DNA from: a phage
Reading direction: 5' to 3' (one strand)
DNA: 64,000 bases
Sequence record: PX421306.1
Of this stretch, positions 41,289 through 49,739 are shown one piece after another. The number at the start of each line of letters is the position of its first letter. Positions within the stretch are counted from its first letter, which is position 1. The notes beneath the pieces are model-generated. The model was not told the DNA's origin. It saw nothing but the letters and a program-made list of their open reading frames with translations, and did no database searches. Both the position numbers and the translations under genes were made by a program.

Positions 41289-42873
<1,585 letters not shown>

Positions 42874-42900
42874 AATAAAATGGGCCTTGCGGCCCACTCC
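42874..42900 (-). promoter_or_regulatory. Structured translation initiation region of denA: SD GGAG separated from AUG by an 18-nt hairpin (UGGGCC-GCAA-GGCCCA)
   Basis: Minus strand TAA-GGAGTGGGCCGCAAGGCCCATTTTATT-ATG; GNRA-type loop. Confidence 0.5.
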
Positions 42901-44070
42901 TTAAAAATATTTTTTAAAACTCATCATAACTTTATCATCAACATCATTATCAATCTGTGCAACAAGGTAAGATGACAGTTCTACTTCTTGTGGCGCTGAT
43001 TGAACATTATCAGAATTAAGATATTCACGAATCCAAGGATACGGATGTTTAACCGGAGCATCAGTAATTGGGCATGGAAGACCGCACTGTTTCATACGAG
43101 ATACAGTTAAGTAATCAATAAAGCTCCACATGCTATTTGTATTTAATCCAGGAACATCGCCATCTTTAAATAAATGAACTGCCCAGTCTTTTTCTTGACG
43201 GTTAACTTCCATGAAAATATCAACTGCTTCTTGTTCACACTCTTGGGCGATTTTAACCCATTCATCACCATCAGTGCCAAGCTGAAGTTGACGAATAATA
43301 TATTGGGTGCCTTTAAGGTGTAGCTGTTCATCACGAGCAATGAACTTCATAATCTTGGCATTACCTTCCATGATTTCCATGTTTTTGTGGAAGTTAAATG
43401 TACACGCGAAAGATACGTAAAAACGAATAGCTTCCAGAGCGTTGATTACATGAAGGCAAAGATAAAGAGATTTCATTAATGCTCGTTTAGTACATTCAAC
43501 AACTTTGCCTAACTCTTCTTTACGAAATCCTTCTGATAAAATTCCTTCATAATCTTCAACCGCATTCTGATATTCACGAGTCTTAACTAGAACGTCATCA
43601 TAATAACGACCAATAGATTCAGCACGTTTCATGATAGCTTTATCTAATACAATCTCATCAAATACCTTTGACGGATCAGTATAAAGATTTCGCATAATAT
43701 GAGTATATGAACGGCTGTGAATAGTTTCACTAAAAGTCCATGTAGCAACCCATGTATCAAGGCTTGGGTCTGAAATTAATGACATAAGTACAGCAGACGG
43801 TGCACGACCCTGAATGCTATCTAGAAGTGATTGATACTTCAGGTTATTAGTAAAAATATCCTGCTGATATTGAGGAAGCTTATTAAATTGTGCAGCATCC
43901 ATCATCAAGTTTACTTCTTCAGGACGCCAGAAAAATGACAACTGCTTTTCGGTTAAATCTTCAAAAACTTTATGACGTTGAATATCATAACGCGCAATAC
44001 CAAGACCTGAACCGAAGAACATAGGTTCTTTTAAAACATCAACTGGATTTGTATTAAAAACTGTGCTCAT
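42901..44070 (-). CDS. nrdB: Ribonucleotide reductase beta subunit NrdB (389 aa), uninterrupted
   Basis: Di-iron/tyrosyl radical family, continuous ORF. Confidence 0.96.
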   Translation of the reverse strand: MSTVFNTNPVDVLKEPMFFGSGLGIARYDIQRHKVFEDLTEKQLSFFWRPEEVNLMMDAAQFNKLPQYQQDIFTNNLKYQSLLDSIQGRAPSAVLMSLISDPSLDTWVATWTFSETIHSRSYTHIMRNLYTDPSKVFDEIVLDKAIMKRAESIGRYYDDVLVKTREYQNAVEDYEGILSEGFRKEELGKVVECTKRALMKSLYLCLHVINALEAIRFYVSFACTFNFHKNMEIMEGNAKIMKFIARDEQLHLKGTQYIIRQLQLGTDGDEWVKIAQECEQEAVDIFMEVNRQEKDWAVHLFKDGDVPGLNTNSMWSFIDYLTVSRMKQCGLPCPITDAPVKHPYPWIREYLNSDNVQSAPQEVELSSYLVAQIDNDVDDKVMMSFKKYF

Positions 44071-44121
44071 AAATTTTCCGCTTAGTTAATAGATAGTGAC
44101 TCGTCCGTGAGTCAAATTATA

Positions 44122-45111
44122 TCATAATTTACAGGATGAACAATCTTCAGCTTTTGGAGTTTCTATTTCATAATCATCAGTACCAGAACCGTCGCGGGTA
44201 TTATGATAATAGAAATTTTTTCCGCCAAAATACCAAAAGTACAAAAGGTCATCAATCATTACAGACATTGGAACCTTTCCTTTTGGAAAAATCTGCGGGT
44301 CATAATATGTATTCGCTGAAGCTGATTGACATACCCATTTCAGCATAATAGCTACCTGCGTAAGATAAGGTTTATTACCTTTCTTAGCCAATTTCCACGT
44401 ATAATCATAGAGGTCTATGTTATGTTCAATATTGGGCACGACTTGATTAAAGGAACCCTCTTTTGACTCTTTAACAGAGACTGGTCCACGTGGAGGCTCG
44501 ATACCGTTTGTACTGTTAGAAACTTGGGAAGATGACTCACATGGCATAAGTGCTGATAATGTGCTATTACGAATGCCAAAGAGCTTAAGGTCTTCCCGCA
44601 GCGACGACCAGTCACAAACGTATTTTGGAGCTGCGATTTGGTCAATCTTTTTATTGTACCAGTCGATAGGTAATTCGCCTCGAGACCAACGAGTGTCTGA
44701 ATAATATTCGCAAGGTCCTTTTTCTTTGGCGAGCTTAATGGATGCTTTAATGAGTCCATACTGTAATCTCTCAAATAGTTCATGTGTTAAATCGTTAGCA
44801 TCTTCATAAGAAGCAAAGTTACTTGCCAACCAAGCTGCATAGTTAGTAACACCTACACCAAGATTTCGACGCTTTTTAGCCTTTTCTGCTTCAGGAACTG
44901 GATATCCTTGGTAATCCAAAAGATTATCAAGAGCACGAACTTGGACTTCTGCTAATTCATTAATTTTATCTTGGTCTTGCCAATCGAAGTTATCTAACAC
45001 AAATGCGCTAAGGGTACAAAGCCCCACTTCTCCCTTGTTTTCAATAACTTCTATTGTAGTATACTCATCATCTTCGTAAAATTCATCTACAAATTCATAA
45101 TCAATATTCAT
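44122..45111 (-). CDS. nrdA: Ribonucleotide reductase alpha subunit, C-terminal fragment (329 aa)
   Basis: Begins with 19-27 non-native residues then EVGLCTLSAF...; C-terminal CxxC tail (CSSCKL); start overlaps HNH stop. Confidence 0.9.
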   Translation of the reverse strand: MNIDYEFVDEFYEDDEYTTIEVIENKGEVGLCTLSAFVLDNFDWQDQDKINELAEVQVRALDNLLDYQGYPVPEAEKAKKRRNLGVGVTNYAAWLASNFASYEDANDLTHELFERLQYGLIKASIKLAKEKGPCEYYSDTRWSRGELPIDWYNKKIDQIAAPKYVCDWSSLREDLKLFGIRNSTLSALMPCESSSQVSNSTNGIEPPRGPVSVKESKEGSFNQVVPNIEHNIDLYDYTWKLAKKGNKPYLTQVAIMLKWVCQSASANTYYDPQIFPKGKVPMSVMIDDLLYFWYFGGKNFYYHNTRDGSGTDDYEIETPKAEDCSSCKL

Positions 45112-45943
45112 TTAATTCTTCTACCTTTTTTCTAGTAATTCCTAAAGCTTTAGATGCTCGATGTATTGATTGATATTCTATACCGTTTATTTTTACAGCA
45201 ATTAAGTTATGGGGTTTTAATCCCTTTGGATGAGGTTTACTGACGAAAACTAAATTATCAAGCTCTGAAATCTTATCCAATTTCTTACACTTAAATCCTT
45301 TGTGATGCGCCCGTTTACCTTTACAAACGGCTGACATCGCAGATGGATTTAAATTATGCTCTTTACAAAATTCGTTAAGACCTCGATGAATTTCCTCATG
45401 ACCATCTGGAAATGTAAACACCCAAGACGTTTGAAGTCGAGATTTAACTTCTGGAGACATAGGAATACCTTTGTTCCAGGCCGGTTTGCCTTTATTATTT
45501 TCAGATACAGAAATAGCCAATTTTCTTCTAAGCCACCCATGTCGTTTATTGGTGTTCTTTCGTTCAATATTATCTTCAGAATAAACACACATCATATTAG
45601 CGGCAAATATCAATTTATGATTATCTGGATATATCTTTACTAATAATTGATGAGCTATGTAATGCTCTTCTGGTGTCAAATCTACCAGGTTTTCCTTTGT
45701 ATCAGAACCACCAATACACAGAGGTATAATATGATGTGATTCGGTATAGCAATCTAATTTTCTGTTCTTAGCTTTAGAAATAAGGTTATTGTAAATTTTA
45801 GAATAATCCATAACTTTTCCTCTTGTTATGGATTATTTATTAACGGTCTGTGTACTTTATTTGCTTTGAATTATACCGCCAGGATTAGCTTCATAAAACT
45901 TAGCTACATCCGACTTCTTAATTTTAATTAAACGGGTTTGTTG
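45050..45943 (-). mobile_element. Approximate extent of the homing-endonuclease insertion interrupting nrdA
   Basis: Region between the last native NrdA-N codons (NDVNS, ~45944) and resumption of native NrdA-C sequence; boundaries approximate. Confidence 0.5.
45101..45811 (-). CDS. mobE: mobE-like HNH homing endonuclease (236 aa) inserted within nrdA
   Basis: Mob-family HNH signature ESHHIIPLCIGGSDTKENLVDLTPEEHYIAHQ, NUMOD-like C-terminal motifs, SD AAGAGGA. Confidence 0.85.
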   Translation of the reverse strand: MDYSKIYNNLISKAKNRKLDCYTESHHIIPLCIGGSDTKENLVDLTPEEHYIAHQLLVKIYPDNHKLIFAANMMCVYSEDNIERKNTNKRHGWLRRKLAISVSENNKGKPAWNKGIPMSPEVKSRLQTSWVFTFPDGHEEIHRGLNEFCKEHNLNPSAMSAVCKGKRAHHKGFKCKKLDKISELDNLVFVSKPHPKGLKPHNLIAVKINGIEYQSIHRASKALGITRKKVEELNEY

Positions 45944-47290
45944 ACTATTCACGTCATTTGTTGGAATAGCAATTTCACAACACAAGTTACTCTGACGAAT
46001 AGGTGCCTTTTCACGAATAAATGGAGTATAGTTATTCGTATTATCAATGAACTGTACATAAATCCTTGCTGTTCCTGAGCGTTCAGTCATAAGTAATTCA
46101 AATAGTTCACGGGCTTTAATACGCTTTTTGCGAATATTAGGGTCTTTTTCTGCTGCTTCGTATAATTCGCGGAAACGGTCTTGGTCTTTAAAATAAGAAT
46201 AATAAAGCTCGCCACCCATTTCATGCGGACTGAATAAAGTAATGTAATCGTTCTTTCCGAATCGTTCCATCATCAAATCATTCAGCTGAACACCATAATC
46301 CATATGACGGATACGGTTTTCTTCTACACCTTTATTATTTTTCAAAACGAGAAGATTTTCAACTTCCAAATGCCAAATAGGATAATAAGCAGTAGCAGCG
46401 CCGCCACGAATTCCGCCTTGTGAACATGATTTAACAGCAGTCTGAAAATGTTTCCAAAAAGGAATAACGCCAGTATGACGCACTTCACCTGTGCCAATCT
46501 TAGAACCTTCAGCACGAATCATACCAACGTTAATGCCAATTCCAGCTCGTTTAGAAATATACTCAACAATTGAAGCAGAAGCCTTATTGATAGACTTCAG
46601 CGAATCACCTGCTTCAATAACAACGCATGAACTAAACTGTCGAGTTGGAGTACGACAACCAGCCATAATAGGAGTTGGCAATGAAATCTGTCGAGTAGAT
46701 ACTGCTTCATAAAAACGGATAACGTGTTTTAATCTATCAACAGGTTCATCTTGATGCAATGCCATTCCAATAGTCATAAATGCAAACTGTGGAGTTTCAT
46801 AAATTTGACCAGTGGTTTTATCTTTAACTAGATATTTTTCTTTTAATTGCATCGCCCCGGAATAAGTAAATTCCATATCCCGCTCATGCTTAATTTTTGA
46901 TTCTAAAAATGTAATTTCTTCGGCAGAATATTTTGACAACAATTCAGGGTCGTATTTACCTTCATTTACACAGTAAGAAATTTGATCAATAAATGAACGT
47001 GGTTCATACTGCCCATAAACATGCTTACGAAGAGCGAACATTAAACAGCGTGCAGCTACATATTGATAATCAGGCTCTTCAACTGAAATAGAATTCGCAG
47101 CAGCCTTAATGACAATAGTCTGAATGTCATCAGTTGTCATTCCATCACGGAGATATGATTTAATATTTTCATATAATTCATAAGGATCTACAGATGTTCC
47201 TTCAGCTGCCCAAGATAAAACTTTAATAATTTTTTGCGGGTCAAAGCTCTGAGAAACACCACTACTTTTGATAACATTAATTAATTGCAT
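45857..47290 (-). CDS. nrdA: Ribonucleotide reductase alpha subunit, N-terminal fragment (477 aa)
   Basis: MQLINVIKSSGVSQSFDPQKII... through active-site SNLCCEIAIPTNDVNS, then 28 unrelated residues and stop. Confidence 0.92.
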   Translation of the reverse strand: MQLINVIKSSGVSQSFDPQKIIKVLSWAAEGTSVDPYELYENIKSYLRDGMTTDDIQTIVIKAAANSISVEEPDYQYVAARCLMFALRKHVYGQYEPRSFIDQISYCVNEGKYDPELLSKYSAEEITFLESKIKHERDMEFTYSGAMQLKEKYLVKDKTTGQIYETPQFAFMTIGMALHQDEPVDRLKHVIRFYEAVSTRQISLPTPIMAGCRTPTRQFSSCVVIEAGDSLKSINKASASIVEYISKRAGIGINVGMIRAEGSKIGTGEVRHTGVIPFWKHFQTAVKSCSQGGIRGGAATAYYPIWHLEVENLLVLKNNKGVEENRIRHMDYGVQLNDLMMERFGKNDYITLFSPHEMGGELYYSYFKDQDRFRELYEAAEKDPNIRKKRIKARELFELLMTERSGTARIYVQFIDNTNNYTPFIREKAPIRQSNLCCEIAIPTNDVNSQQTRLIKIKKSDVAKFYEANPGGIIQSK

Positions 47291-47517
47291 AAGTCCTCAA
47301 CTTGAAAATCGTCTTTAAACAATCGGTTAACTATATGAGCTATTATATCACCATGACACGGCTTTGGTTTACATGTGCATCCTAGCCTCATTCCACGTAA
47401 AGGCTCTAAATGTGCTTTAGTTATTTCTCCGGATTTAATTCGACGTATAAAATCTTTTTTGAATAATTCAATGGCAGCCTCCCGGCTGCCAGCATCTTTA
47501 CCGACGTAATTTCCCAA
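47281..47517 (-). CDS. nrdA.1: Small protein with GCxC...PCHGD motif (DUF4326-like), nrdA.1 position
   Basis: 78 aa, motif LGCTCKPKPCHGD. Confidence 0.55.
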   Translation of the reverse strand: MGNYVGKDAGSREAAIELFKKDFIRRIKSGEITKAHLEPLRGMRLGCTCKPKPCHGDIIAHIVNRLFKDDFQVEDLCN

Positions 47518-47559
47518 AATGTACCACGGTGAATATTAACATCAAAGTCGGATTTATAT

Positions 47560-47835
47560 TTATTCACTACCCGGCATAGACGGCCCGCGTGGTAATAGTT
47601 CGTCATATTGTTTTTCCGTTAAAACAGTAATATCATAATAACAATCAGAAGAAGTTTTAACTGTAGAAATTTTATTATCAAAATACTCACGAGTCATTTT
47701 ATGAGTATAATATTTTTTGCCATAAATGATAATAGGCTGTTCTGGCCCTGGAACTTCCAGTTCACTTGGATTAGGAAGTGTAAAAAGAACGACACCAGAA
47801 GTATCCTTAAATCGTAAAATCATATATCCTCTCAA
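47560..47835 (-). CDS. nrdA.2: Hypothetical protein (nrdA.2 position)
   Basis: 91-aa ORF. Confidence 0.5.
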
Positions 47836-47846
47836 TTAAATTAAAA

Positions 47847-48706
47847 TTACACCGCCATCTTTCCTTTAATTGGCGGATGAGATACATAGTTGTTAAGAAC
47901 AAAATTATGTGGCTTTGCGAATTGACTCAACCAAAATACCTGAGATTCTGTGCCCCATTCATCAAATTCATCTGGAAATTTTAATTGTAATTCACATAAA
48001 TCCATAGGTTCACGACGTAAAATTTCTTTACATTGTTCTACGTGATTCATATAGATATGAGTATTACCACCAGAAAATATCAAATCTCCTGGAATAAGAT
48101 TACACATCTTAGCTACAATATGAACTAACGTAGCATATGATGCAATATTAAATGGAAGACCGAGGAAAACATCTACCGAACGTTGATACCACTGCAAATC
48201 CAAATAGCCATTACGCACATTAAACTGATAGAACATATGACAAGGTGGCAATGCCATCTGCTTGAGTTCTGCCGGATTCCATGCTGAAACAATTTGACGT
48301 CTATCATTTGGCAGTTTTTTAATACGATCAACAACTTCTACAATTTGGTCTACACCGCCAAAATCACGCCACTGTTTTCCATAAATTGGACCAAGTTCAC
48401 CGCTATGATATCCTAAATCTTTTGCTTGATTTTCGTAATTTTCATCCCAGACTGTTTTGCCTTGAATTAATGAATCGTGTTGAATTAATCGTAAATCATT
48501 AACATTTGTGCTTCCTGATAAAAACCAAAGGAGCTCAGCAATGCAAGCTTTCCAGGCAAGCTTCTTAGTCGTTACTGCAGGAAAACCTTTAGTTAAATCC
48601 CAGCGTAATTTAGTACCGAACAAAGCAATTGTTCCTGTGCCTGTTCGGTCATCGGTTTCATAACCGTTTTCCAGGATATCTTTAATTAAAAATTGGTATT
48701 GTTTCA

Positions 48707-48707
<1 letters not shown>
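47847..48707 (-). CDS. td: Thymidylate synthase (286 aa), uninterrupted (no intron)
   Basis: Continuous ORF MKQYQ...; catalytic PPCH motif; track ORF starts at upstream TTG. Confidence 0.95.

Positions 48708-49739
<1,032 letters not shown>

Follow-up and report, generated by a model that had tools for sequence, protein, structure and literature searches.

Results

Organisation of the split nrdA locus

The window analysed here is a 64,000-nt stretch of phage DNA from record PX421306.1, of which positions 42500-48500 were covered by a map of open reading frames (ORFs). In this region nrdA, the gene for the large (alpha) subunit of class Ia ribonucleotide reductase (RNR), is present as two separate ORFs with a gene for a MobE-like HNH endonuclease between them, all on the minus strand. 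The N fragment, nrdA-a (45857..47290), encodes 477 aa, the HNH ORF (45101..45811) 236 aa and the C fragment, nrdA-b (44122..45111), 329 aa; nrdA-b overlaps the HNH ORF by 11 nt. A Shine-Dalgarno (SD) sequence, AAGAGGA, stands upstream of the HNH ATG. The small-subunit gene nrdB (42901..44070, minus strand; 389 aa, Pfam Ribonuc_red_sm), which encodes the partner of the split large subunit, is uninterrupted and lies 51 nt downstream of nrdA-b. A preliminary description of this DNA had given these ORFs, motifs and distances correctly. An arrangement of the kind nrdA-a/mobE/nrdA-b is known from the Aeromonas phage Aeh1 (Friedrich et al. 2007, PNAS, as presented in PMC3045599; Crona et al. 2011, PMC3045599).

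NrdA-a tracks intact NrdA up to ...SNLCCEIAIPTNDVNS (aa 434-449) and then reads 28 unrelated residues, while NrdA-b opens with 27 unrelated residues before NrdA sequence is back at EVGLCTLSAF. The core of nrdA-a (aa 1-449, 45944..47290, minus strand), which ends with this segment, comprises the ATP cone, the all-alpha domain and the first half of the barrel, and the core of nrdA-b (44122..45030, minus strand) the second half. In Pfam, NrdA-a has matches to ATP-cone and Ribonuc_red_lgN as well as to the barrel model, of whose 523 positions it takes up 1-221, and NrdA-b continues the same model at positions 219-523. On NF006578, the 761-position NCBIfam equivalog of class Ia alpha, NrdA-a covers 4-452 and NrdA-b 452-759, with 617 and 365 bits for the two fragments against a one-chain cutoff of 813. 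The two ORFs therefore make up one complete NrdA with no part missing, and the full class Ia alpha domain set and catalytic residues are present across them.

Insertion point and limits of the cassette

The closest intact allele is that of phage vB_EcoM_IME339, to which the flanks are 99.8% (the nrdA-a core) and 99.2% identical. Alignment with this allele and with E. coli R1 sets the insertion point exactly; the preliminary description had proposed alignment with intact T4 and E. coli NrdA. IME339 reads ...PTNDVNS-PDA-EIGLCTLSAF at the site, and in the window a 912-nt cassette (45942..45031) stands in place of the three codons P-D-A. On the sequence of the solved E. coli R1, the N core stops at the equivalent of D454 and the C core resumes at E458. 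In E. coli numbering, the break falls in a variable loop that has the strand of N437/C439/E441 on one side and that of C462 on the other; therefore C222 (E. coli C225), N435, C437 and E439 are on NrdA-a, and C32 (E. coli C462), Y301/Y302 (Y730/Y731) and C324/C327 (C754/C759) on NrdA-b. The gene is thus split in its catalytic core, as had been proposed from the catalytic Cys and Glu on one fragment and the next conserved Cys on the other.

Some 200 nt of the 912-nt cassette lie outside the HNH ORF, rather than the 130-190 nt of the preliminary description, and nearly all of them are coding: 84 nt plus a stop codon for NrdA-a's C-terminal tail and 81 nt (11 of them shared with the HNH ORF) for the N-terminal head of NrdA-b, with 45 nt of non-coding spacer. 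Directly 3' of the cassette, 24 nt encoding EVGLCTLS (45007..45030, minus strand) are recoded. Compared with the intact allele, 11 of these 24 bases are changed and a single amino acid is replaced, conservatively (I to V), and the remaining gene differs by less than 1% from IME339. This recoding is presumed to destroy the target of the endonuclease.

The endonuclease

The HNH protein has an N-terminal HNH domain and a C-terminal NUMOD-like/helix-turn-helix DNA-binding part. Its motif ESHHIIPLCIGGSDTKENLVDLTPEEHYIAH aligns with the HNH motif of McrA, and H26, H27, N41, H50 and H54 are invariant across the split-type family. Pfam reports PF22083 (I-HmuI NUMOD-like, E 1.7e-9), the central region aligns with I-HmuI (1u3e) by sequence, and the protein is assigned to PHROG 655, homing endonuclease. 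An AlphaFold (AF2) model built from 36 homologues reaches a predicted local distance difference test score (pLDDT) of 90.1, and I-HmuI is its top fold match in the PDB (E 5.5e-5). A search of 50,697 phage records gives Aeh1 MobE as the best full-length match that is not from the coliphage group, with 45% identity over 227 of the 236 residues (E 5e-57); the 141-aa T4 MobE is 45% identical over 130 aa, corresponding to the HNH domain. The Pfam and MobE matches bear out the earlier assignment to the Mob family with a NUMOD-like module. In the cluster to which the HNH protein belongs, one member (P0255, on 8 contigs) has 197 aa, the other members being listed with 236 aa; it may be a truncated, decaying copy of the endonuclease.

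The tail and head peptides

The 28 codons that end nrdA-a, QQTRLIKIKKSDVAKFYEANPGGIIQSK, and their stop codon (45857..45943, minus strand, within the cassette) encode a basic tail with a net charge of +4 and an isoelectric point (pI) of 10.0. The 27 codons that open nrdA-b, MNIDYEFVDEFYEDDEYTTIEVIENKG (45031..45111, minus strand; the first 11 nt overlap the HNH ORF), encode an acidic head with a net charge of -9 and a pI of 4.1. The tail aligns with the C-terminal tail of Aeh1 NrdA-a (8 of 16 residues identical in the core) and the head with the N-terminal tail of Aeh1 NrdA-b (11 of 22). Across 12 lineages carrying the split form, the tail keeps the motif L[IV]K[IV]KKSD[VI]xxF and the head E[FI]VxEFYEDDEYTT[ILV][EQ][VI]. 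The diversity of tails was taken from contigs, because a search with the N fragment gave almost only near-identical intact T4-type proteins, and in the NrdA-a alignment the tail is placed against the downstream strand of intact proteins. The net charges of the two segments are opposite in all 12 lineages, from +2 to +6 for tails and from -7 to -13 for heads according to the segment boundaries used (+3 to +6 and -7 to -13 with one set, +2 to +5 and -8 to -13 with the other).

The codons that the preliminary description had called unrelated are thus indeed present, but to judge from their homology with Aeh1 they form part of the mobile element, as conserved tails with a function. Crona et al. 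obtained no matches in database searches with the Aeh1 tails (PMC3045599). In Aeh1, both polypeptides with their tails have been identified by mass spectrometry, the split enzyme is fully active and the tails are essential for activity: formation of the heterodimer persists, whereas the dimer of heterodimers and the holoenzyme are impaired (PMC3045599). The alternation of hydrophobic residues with Lys and with Glu in the two peptides leads us to speculate that they could form a two-stranded charged ribbon extending the severed strands of the barrel. The likeness to the mobE-split nrdA of Aeh1 that had been pointed out earlier is a close one, with the same site, a homologous endonuclease and homologous tails.

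The cassette (45031-45942) has 32.3% GC, versus 36.5% and 39.2% for the two nrdA halves, which is consistent with a foreign origin; an AT-rich bias has likewise been reported for the Aeh1 tails. It is also worth noting that the end of the acidic head, TTIEVIENKG (45031-45060), aligns weakly with PTNDVNSPDA just before the insertion (45944-45964). This came from a tblastn search with the head peptide, in which the low-complexity filter masked the acidic part, and was extended through the end of the head; 11 of 18 bases in the first six codons are identical by eye. The head end may have arisen as a duplicate of the target that has since diverged, comparable to 'HomR' in the mobA element, but the similarity is too weak to claim this.

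No signs of RNA or protein splicing

Group I introns are classically found in the nrd genes of T-even phages (T4 nrdB, td), and one could imagine that a single NrdA chain is restored here, either from RNA by a group I intron or from protein by an intein or split intein. Fragments of nrdA with split inteins exist about 10 codons upstream of the site, one relative (contig L102, described below) also carries a contiguous intein at that upstream position, and Crona et al. raised the idea that the tails derive from a degenerate intein (PMC3045599). However, a permissive Rfam scan of 43900-47400 (E up to 10) gave no intron or ribozyme, only three unrelated matches at chance level, and no more than 45 nt of the cassette are non-coding, in line with the earlier view that no group I intron is present. 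The HNH ORF is in the frame of nrdA-a behind two in-frame stop codons, and nrdA-b is in another frame. At the protein level, Pfam finds no Hint or intein domain, and the junction nucleophiles are missing in 12 of 12 lineages: the tail never begins with Cys or Ser, and the head never ends with Asn followed by Cys, Ser or Thr. The two tailed polypeptides seen in Aeh1 by mass spectrometry speak in the same direction. Restoration of one NrdA chain by splicing is thus highly improbable. Whether the tails descend from a degenerate intein was addressed by comparing profiles of the heads and of the C-inteins from split-intein nrdA; the outcome was negative (probability 0.3%), this being a weak test with segments of 27-39 residues on the C-side only.

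A hairpin over the start codon of the endonuclease gene

Most of the 45-nt spacer is taken up by a putative regulatory stretch (45802..45841, minus strand) made of a late-promoter-like motif and a hairpin. The motif, AATAAATA (45841..45834), overlaps the 5' arm of a perfect 13-bp hairpin with arms at 45837..45825 and 45814..45802. The SD sequence AAGAGGA is in the loop (45824..45815), and the HNH AUG (45811..45809) is inside the 3' arm. The predicted stability is -13.8 kcal/mol (z -4.1), and none of 200 shuffled sequences was equally stable. The hairpin is identical in 7 of 7 coliphage alleles compared. In the metagenomic contig L010, with an endonuclease 66% identical to that of the window, the helix is kept via two compensatory pairs, and Aeh1 and contig L012 have hairpins of different sequence at the equivalent place. 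An xxTAAATA motif is found at or within the 5' arm in all four loci (window, L010, Aeh1 and L012). In every lineage, the SD of nrdA-b is purine-rich and placed 10-15 nt 5' of the AUG, within the 3' end of the endonuclease gene. A scan for sigma-70 promoters and terminators gave nothing beyond shuffle expectation. For I-TevI and Aeh1 mobE, a scheme is known in which early transcripts fold and block translation and the late transcript begins within the hairpin (PMC2988022, PMC2677866). By analogy, we infer that the same silencing may operate in the window phage.

Homing footprint and spread among coliphages

The window cassette is 100% identical to the cassette of phage 236Ecol005PP. Outside the cassette the window is IME339-like at 79 of the 81 sites that distinguish IME339 from 236Ecol005PP, and it is 236Ecol005PP-like only at -38 and +23 around the cassette. 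The converted tract therefore consists of the cassette with 38-65 nt upstream and 24-35 nt downstream, the minimal donor-derived tract being 45007..45980 (minus strand), and such a tract is a typical homing footprint. The backbone is 98.7% identical to IME339 over 24 kb, and the cassette is a very recent arrival in this E. coli phage.

A locus that is a recombinant of two known phage types could also be produced by an assembly or sequencing error, or by a chimera of two phages in the sample, and the exact N-fragment protein of the window is not in a collection of 15 billion proteins. Against this, the same architecture, with junctions identical base for base, recurs in many metagenome contigs and in phage genomes that were sequenced independently, about 35 of them, from several countries, and the breakpoints are symmetrical and within 65 nt of the cassette, which fits gene conversion and not a mis-join. 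An artefact is therefore hardly credible, and the interruption, which had been left to be checked by re-sequencing, is real.

The cassette occurs in about 35 GenBank records (roughly 29 phages), every full-length copy being within nrdA, and the exact HNH protein of the window is on 40 contigs. The novelty of the arrangement in a coliphage had thus been rated too high: many deposited coliphage genomes carry it, and a 2022 preprint mentions such cases as unpublished (see below). These carriers, the functional tails, the hairpin over the endonuclease start codon and the synonymous recoding of 24 nt had escaped the preliminary description. All 11 GenBank split alleles examined keep three ORFs, of 477 aa (Tequatrovirus-type) or 474 aa (Mosigvirus-type), 236 aa and 329 aa. 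The two types correspond to two groups of carrier nrdA cores, which are about 77% identical. There are also two cassette variants, about 90% identical to one another, and each is found in both nrdA backgrounds. Cassettes of the same variant are 98.8% (window versus JM17) and 99.9% (HY01 versus AV111) identical across backgrounds, and the fall in identity, with about 99% on one side and about 77% on the other, takes place no more than 2-20 nt from the ends of the cassette. Since both variants occur in both backgrounds, the cassette moves horizontally as a unit, and on these identities it has crossed between genera at least twice.

The two variants are near-identical in the tail, the spacer and the HNH domain, and strongly diverged in a central DNA-binding block (HNH ORF codons ~117-190, window 45244-45463, minus strand; compare L006:2238-2459); both still sit at the same site in both nrdA backgrounds. 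Between variants the endonuclease gene has a ratio of nonsynonymous to synonymous divergence (dN/dS) of 0.14-0.21. The divergence is concentrated in codons 101-236, with a dS of 0.84 versus 0.05 for codons 1-100, and the endonuclease gene is therefore a mosaic. The divergent central block suggests recombination between distinct mobE alleles.

Regarding annotation, in the records of HY01 (L006; KF925357.1, NC_027349.1) only the homing endonuclease is annotated, and the intact 477- and 329-aa fragments have no CDS. Other records name the fragments as duplicate alpha subunits (nrdA_1/nrdA_2) plus a homing endonuclease. In several carriers of the in-gene cassette (L008:3623-4414, L097:3379-4110, L098:3354-4988 and L100:4820-6286) a second, different insert is present between nrdA-b and nrdB, the annotations being DNA adenine methylase (263 aa), endonuclease or hypothetical protein (243 and 544 aa). 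The nrdA-nrdB junction is an independent insertion hotspot, and the window has only its 51-nt spacer there. The nrdA cassette is the only mobile element in this part of the nrd/td cluster of the window: td (thymidylate synthase, 47847-48719) and nrdB (42901-44070) are uninterrupted, whereas their counterparts in T4 are broken up by group I introns, with I-TevI and I-TevIII. The ORF after nrdB (42463-42897), which gives a GIY-YIG match, corresponds to denA (endonuclease II) of related phages and not to a homing endonuclease.

The wider family and a descendant without endonuclease

In a database of 5.8 billion proteins, C fragments 50-91% identical to that of the window, with the same acidic head, were found together with full-length relatives of the endonuclease graded from 83% down to 45% identity. 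All ten full-length MobE relatives with context examined are inside nrdA. The order nrdA-a, endonuclease, nrdA-b is seen in L010/L011, L012/L013, L101-L106 and Aeh1, and L015 has an endonuclease-like ORF and nrdA-b only, at a contig end. In total at least 12 lineages carry the split form, with endonucleases down to 45% identical. IMG/VR gave no coliphage-type cassette; there the in-gene form is found in Aeh1 alone, and the other 25 of the 26 nrd-linked relatives sit past an unsplit nrdA, in the T4-type position. The in-gene form is therefore the rare one.

One contig stands apart (L014:2478-5008; European Nucleotide Archive (ENA) ERZ27315285 contig k141_73620). Its two nrdA fragments are 77 nt apart and have recognisable tails, with no endonuclease gene between them, and its neighbourhood (5'-3' exonuclease, RuvC, RNase H, MazG) is not T4-like. 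From its sequence this looks like a gene fission that was fixed after loss of the element. Since fragments and tails are kept without endonuclease, the split outlives the element.

These relatives bear on a further possibility, namely that the insertion inactivated the reductase, that the phage uses the host RNR and the anaerobic NrdD, and that the fragments are recent pseudogenes that have not yet decayed. T4 nrdA mutants are viable on wild-type hosts. In addition, the insertion is very recent, with flanks 99.2-99.8% identical to the intact allele and a clean footprint, and the GenBank and RefSeq records of HY01 leave the fragments unannotated. However, exact full-length fragments are kept in 11 of 11 GenBank split alleles examined, and the lineages of the wider family, at least 12 in number, have retained the two fragments with the full set of catalytic residues and conserved tails of opposite charge. 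The tails are conserved at least as well as the endonuclease, which would be senseless for pseudogenes, and L014 retains fragments and tails after endonuclease loss. The Aeh1 enzyme, moreover, is fully active (PMC3045599). We consequently regard a dead gene as improbable.

Two further types of nrdA interruption were encountered close to the same site. In L102:707-4287 (ENA ERZ14207129 NODE_16), the N fragment is enlarged to 614 aa by a contiguous intein (...FFANDILVHN|C) placed immediately upstream of the catalytic Cys. Some 10 codons past this intein comes the mobE cassette together with its tails, so that two different mobile elements are within 12 codons of one active site. Split-intein nrdA is represented by the C fragments P0004 (Yersinia phage vB_YenM_TG1), P0005, P0012, P0021, P0054, P0061, P0068, P0098 and P0119, from T4-like phages and metagenomes. 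They are broken at the catalytic Cys and open with a C-intein of about 33 residues ending in LVHN, followed by C-x-E-I. This is a second, mechanistically different solution near the same site.

Discussion

A mobile cassette that brings its own tails

We have observed the anatomy of the locus, its three-part homology with Aeh1, the lack of intron and intein features, a homing footprint, spread across genera and conservation of the tails. Taken together, it is very likely that the locus is an Aeh1-type mobE cassette within nrdA of a T4-like coliphage (Tequatrovirus, with an IME339-like backbone). The mobile unit would be about 0.9 kb and comprise, from 5' to 3', the basic tail with its stop codon, the hairpin spacer, the HNH gene, the acidic head with its own start and the eight recoded codons. 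Judging from the recoding, the endonuclease, made late, would cut the cassette-less nrdA of a co-infecting genome at or near the E458-L461 codons. Repair from the carrier then copies the whole cassette with a few tens of flanking bases, as the footprint shows, and gene conversion would in this way have replaced the loop codons P-D-A of a previously intact nrdA. The recoded 24 nt would keep the carrier genome immune to its own endonuclease. The hairpin over the start codon could silence the endonuclease on early and middle transcripts, the protein probably being made only from a late transcript that starts within the hairpin.

The three proteins would be translated independently from the nrd transcript. 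As in Aeh1, NrdA-a and NrdA-b would associate non-covalently, with tail and head as interaction modules that promote the (NrdA-a/NrdA-b)2 large subunit and its holoenzyme with NrdB. The predicted product is a (NrdA-a/NrdA-b)2-NrdB2 reductase with a composite active site, obtained by neither RNA nor protein splicing. We reason from Aeh1 biochemistry or from sequence alone as regards how the two polypeptides assemble and whether they are active, what the tails do, when the endonuclease is made and where its target site lies.

Several points weigh against this interpretation. The function proposed for the coliphage is carried over from Aeh1, and identity to the NrdA of that phage is no more than about 52-69%. 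The phage RNR is not known to be strictly essential for T4 when E. coli hosts are normal, so that the phage could bear a loss of function for some time, and with an insertion as recent as this one the intact ORFs in this genome prove little alone. When NrdA-b was modelled alone, the head had low pLDDT, with short strands at residues 5-7 and 20-22, an outcome of little weight. Covariation in the hairpin is not significant, with 139 of 500 shuffles reaching it and only two distinct sequences available. Finally, the late-promoter-like motif matches at 7 of 8 positions (AATAAATA versus TATAAATA).

A more general reading can be formulated, to which we give about even chances. The tail, the endonuclease gene and the head would form a 'split-and-rescue' cassette that homes into the catalytic core of an essential enzyme without intron or intein and brings its own complementary interaction peptides, the L-I-K-I-K-K and T-T-I-E-V-I-E segments pairing as a charged beta-ribbon that prolongs the severed barrel strands. 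This cassette would now be spreading between T-even genera (Tequatrovirus, Mosigvirus and relatives), and loss of its endonuclease would leave a permanent two-gene reductase, a general route from invasion to stable gene fission.

The Aeh1 split reductase was until now a near-unique case. The coliphage copies bring the element into the most tractable genetics, that of T4-like phages and E. coli K-12, and with natural isogenic intact alleles at 99% identity, one can directly test homing into active-site codons, what the tails do and how much fitness a two-piece RNR costs. The conservation of the tails, their co-transfer with the endonuclease and the endonuclease-less descendant support the idea of an element that carries its own antidote to the gene fragmentation it causes. 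On a practical level, several deposited genomes in which the fragments are annotated as duplicate, partial or absent nrdA need correction.

Comparison with known systems

The closest system is the nrdA-a/mobE/nrdA-b locus of Aeh1. Both elements have nrdA as host gene and are inserted in the loop after ...PTxxxxx and before E-[IV]-x-LCTL. They share a full-length homologous endonuclease of the long type (~235 aa), a homologous basic C-tail and acidic N-tail, an overlap of the endonuclease and nrdA-b ORFs (11 nt here, 14 nt in Aeh1), a stable hairpin with a TAAATA motif at the translation start of the endonuclease, and nrdB directly after. They differ in that Aeh1 is a Cinqassovirus on Aeromonas, whereas the window phage is a Tequatrovirus on E. 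coli, and the ends of the tails diverge after the conserved core. The SD of Aeh1 mobE is in the stem; the window hairpin is unrelated in sequence, covers the AUG and places the SD within its loop. Neither a donor nor a relative with an empty site is described for Aeh1, whereas the window insertion is recent, with intact sisters at 99% and variants across genera. Conversely, biochemistry exists for Aeh1, and the coliphage version is known here from sequence.

T4 mobE (Wilson and Edgell 2009, PMC2790892) belongs to the same endonuclease family and operon and shares the homing lifestyle. T4 nrdA, however, is a single 754-aa ORF, with mobE in the intergenic position between nrdA and nrdB, as the preliminary description stated and the T4 record shows. 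T4 mobE splits no gene and has no tails, and its 141-aa product is without the C-terminal ~100 aa. The target gene of T4 MobE is nrdB according to a review table.

A similar strategy is found in the T4 mobA element in topoisomerase genes 39/60 (bioRxiv 10.1101/2022.08.31.505936), where an HNH Mob endonuclease likewise lies inside an essential enzyme gene, with a C-terminal extension on the upstream ORF and an N-terminal extension on the downstream ORF, and a short target stretch is replaced by a diverged homologous region of the element. It differs in its host gene, in a 50-nt translational bypass and in extensions without sequence similarity to those of the window. The authors of that preprint draw the parallel with MobE and mention several other Myoviridae with MobE insertions and conserved extensions as unpublished. 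The split-intein fractured nrdA (Dassa et al. 2009, PMC2677866) is likewise broken into two genes that a free-standing endonuclease separates; a hairpin lies upstream of this endonuclease, and there is an overlap with the downstream fragment. There, however, split-intein halves end ...LVHN before the catalytic Cys and protein trans-splicing is presumed, whereas in the window the break is about 10 codons further downstream, intein motifs are absent and the halves stay separate.

Reviews up to 2013 list Aeh1 alone as a mobE-split nrdA, and our full-text literature searches found no paper describing a mobE-split nrdA in a coliphage. This kind of element is already known and had been noticed before; what is added here is the homology of the tails and their family-wide conservation, a fresh homing event, transfer across genera and an endonuclease-less descendant.

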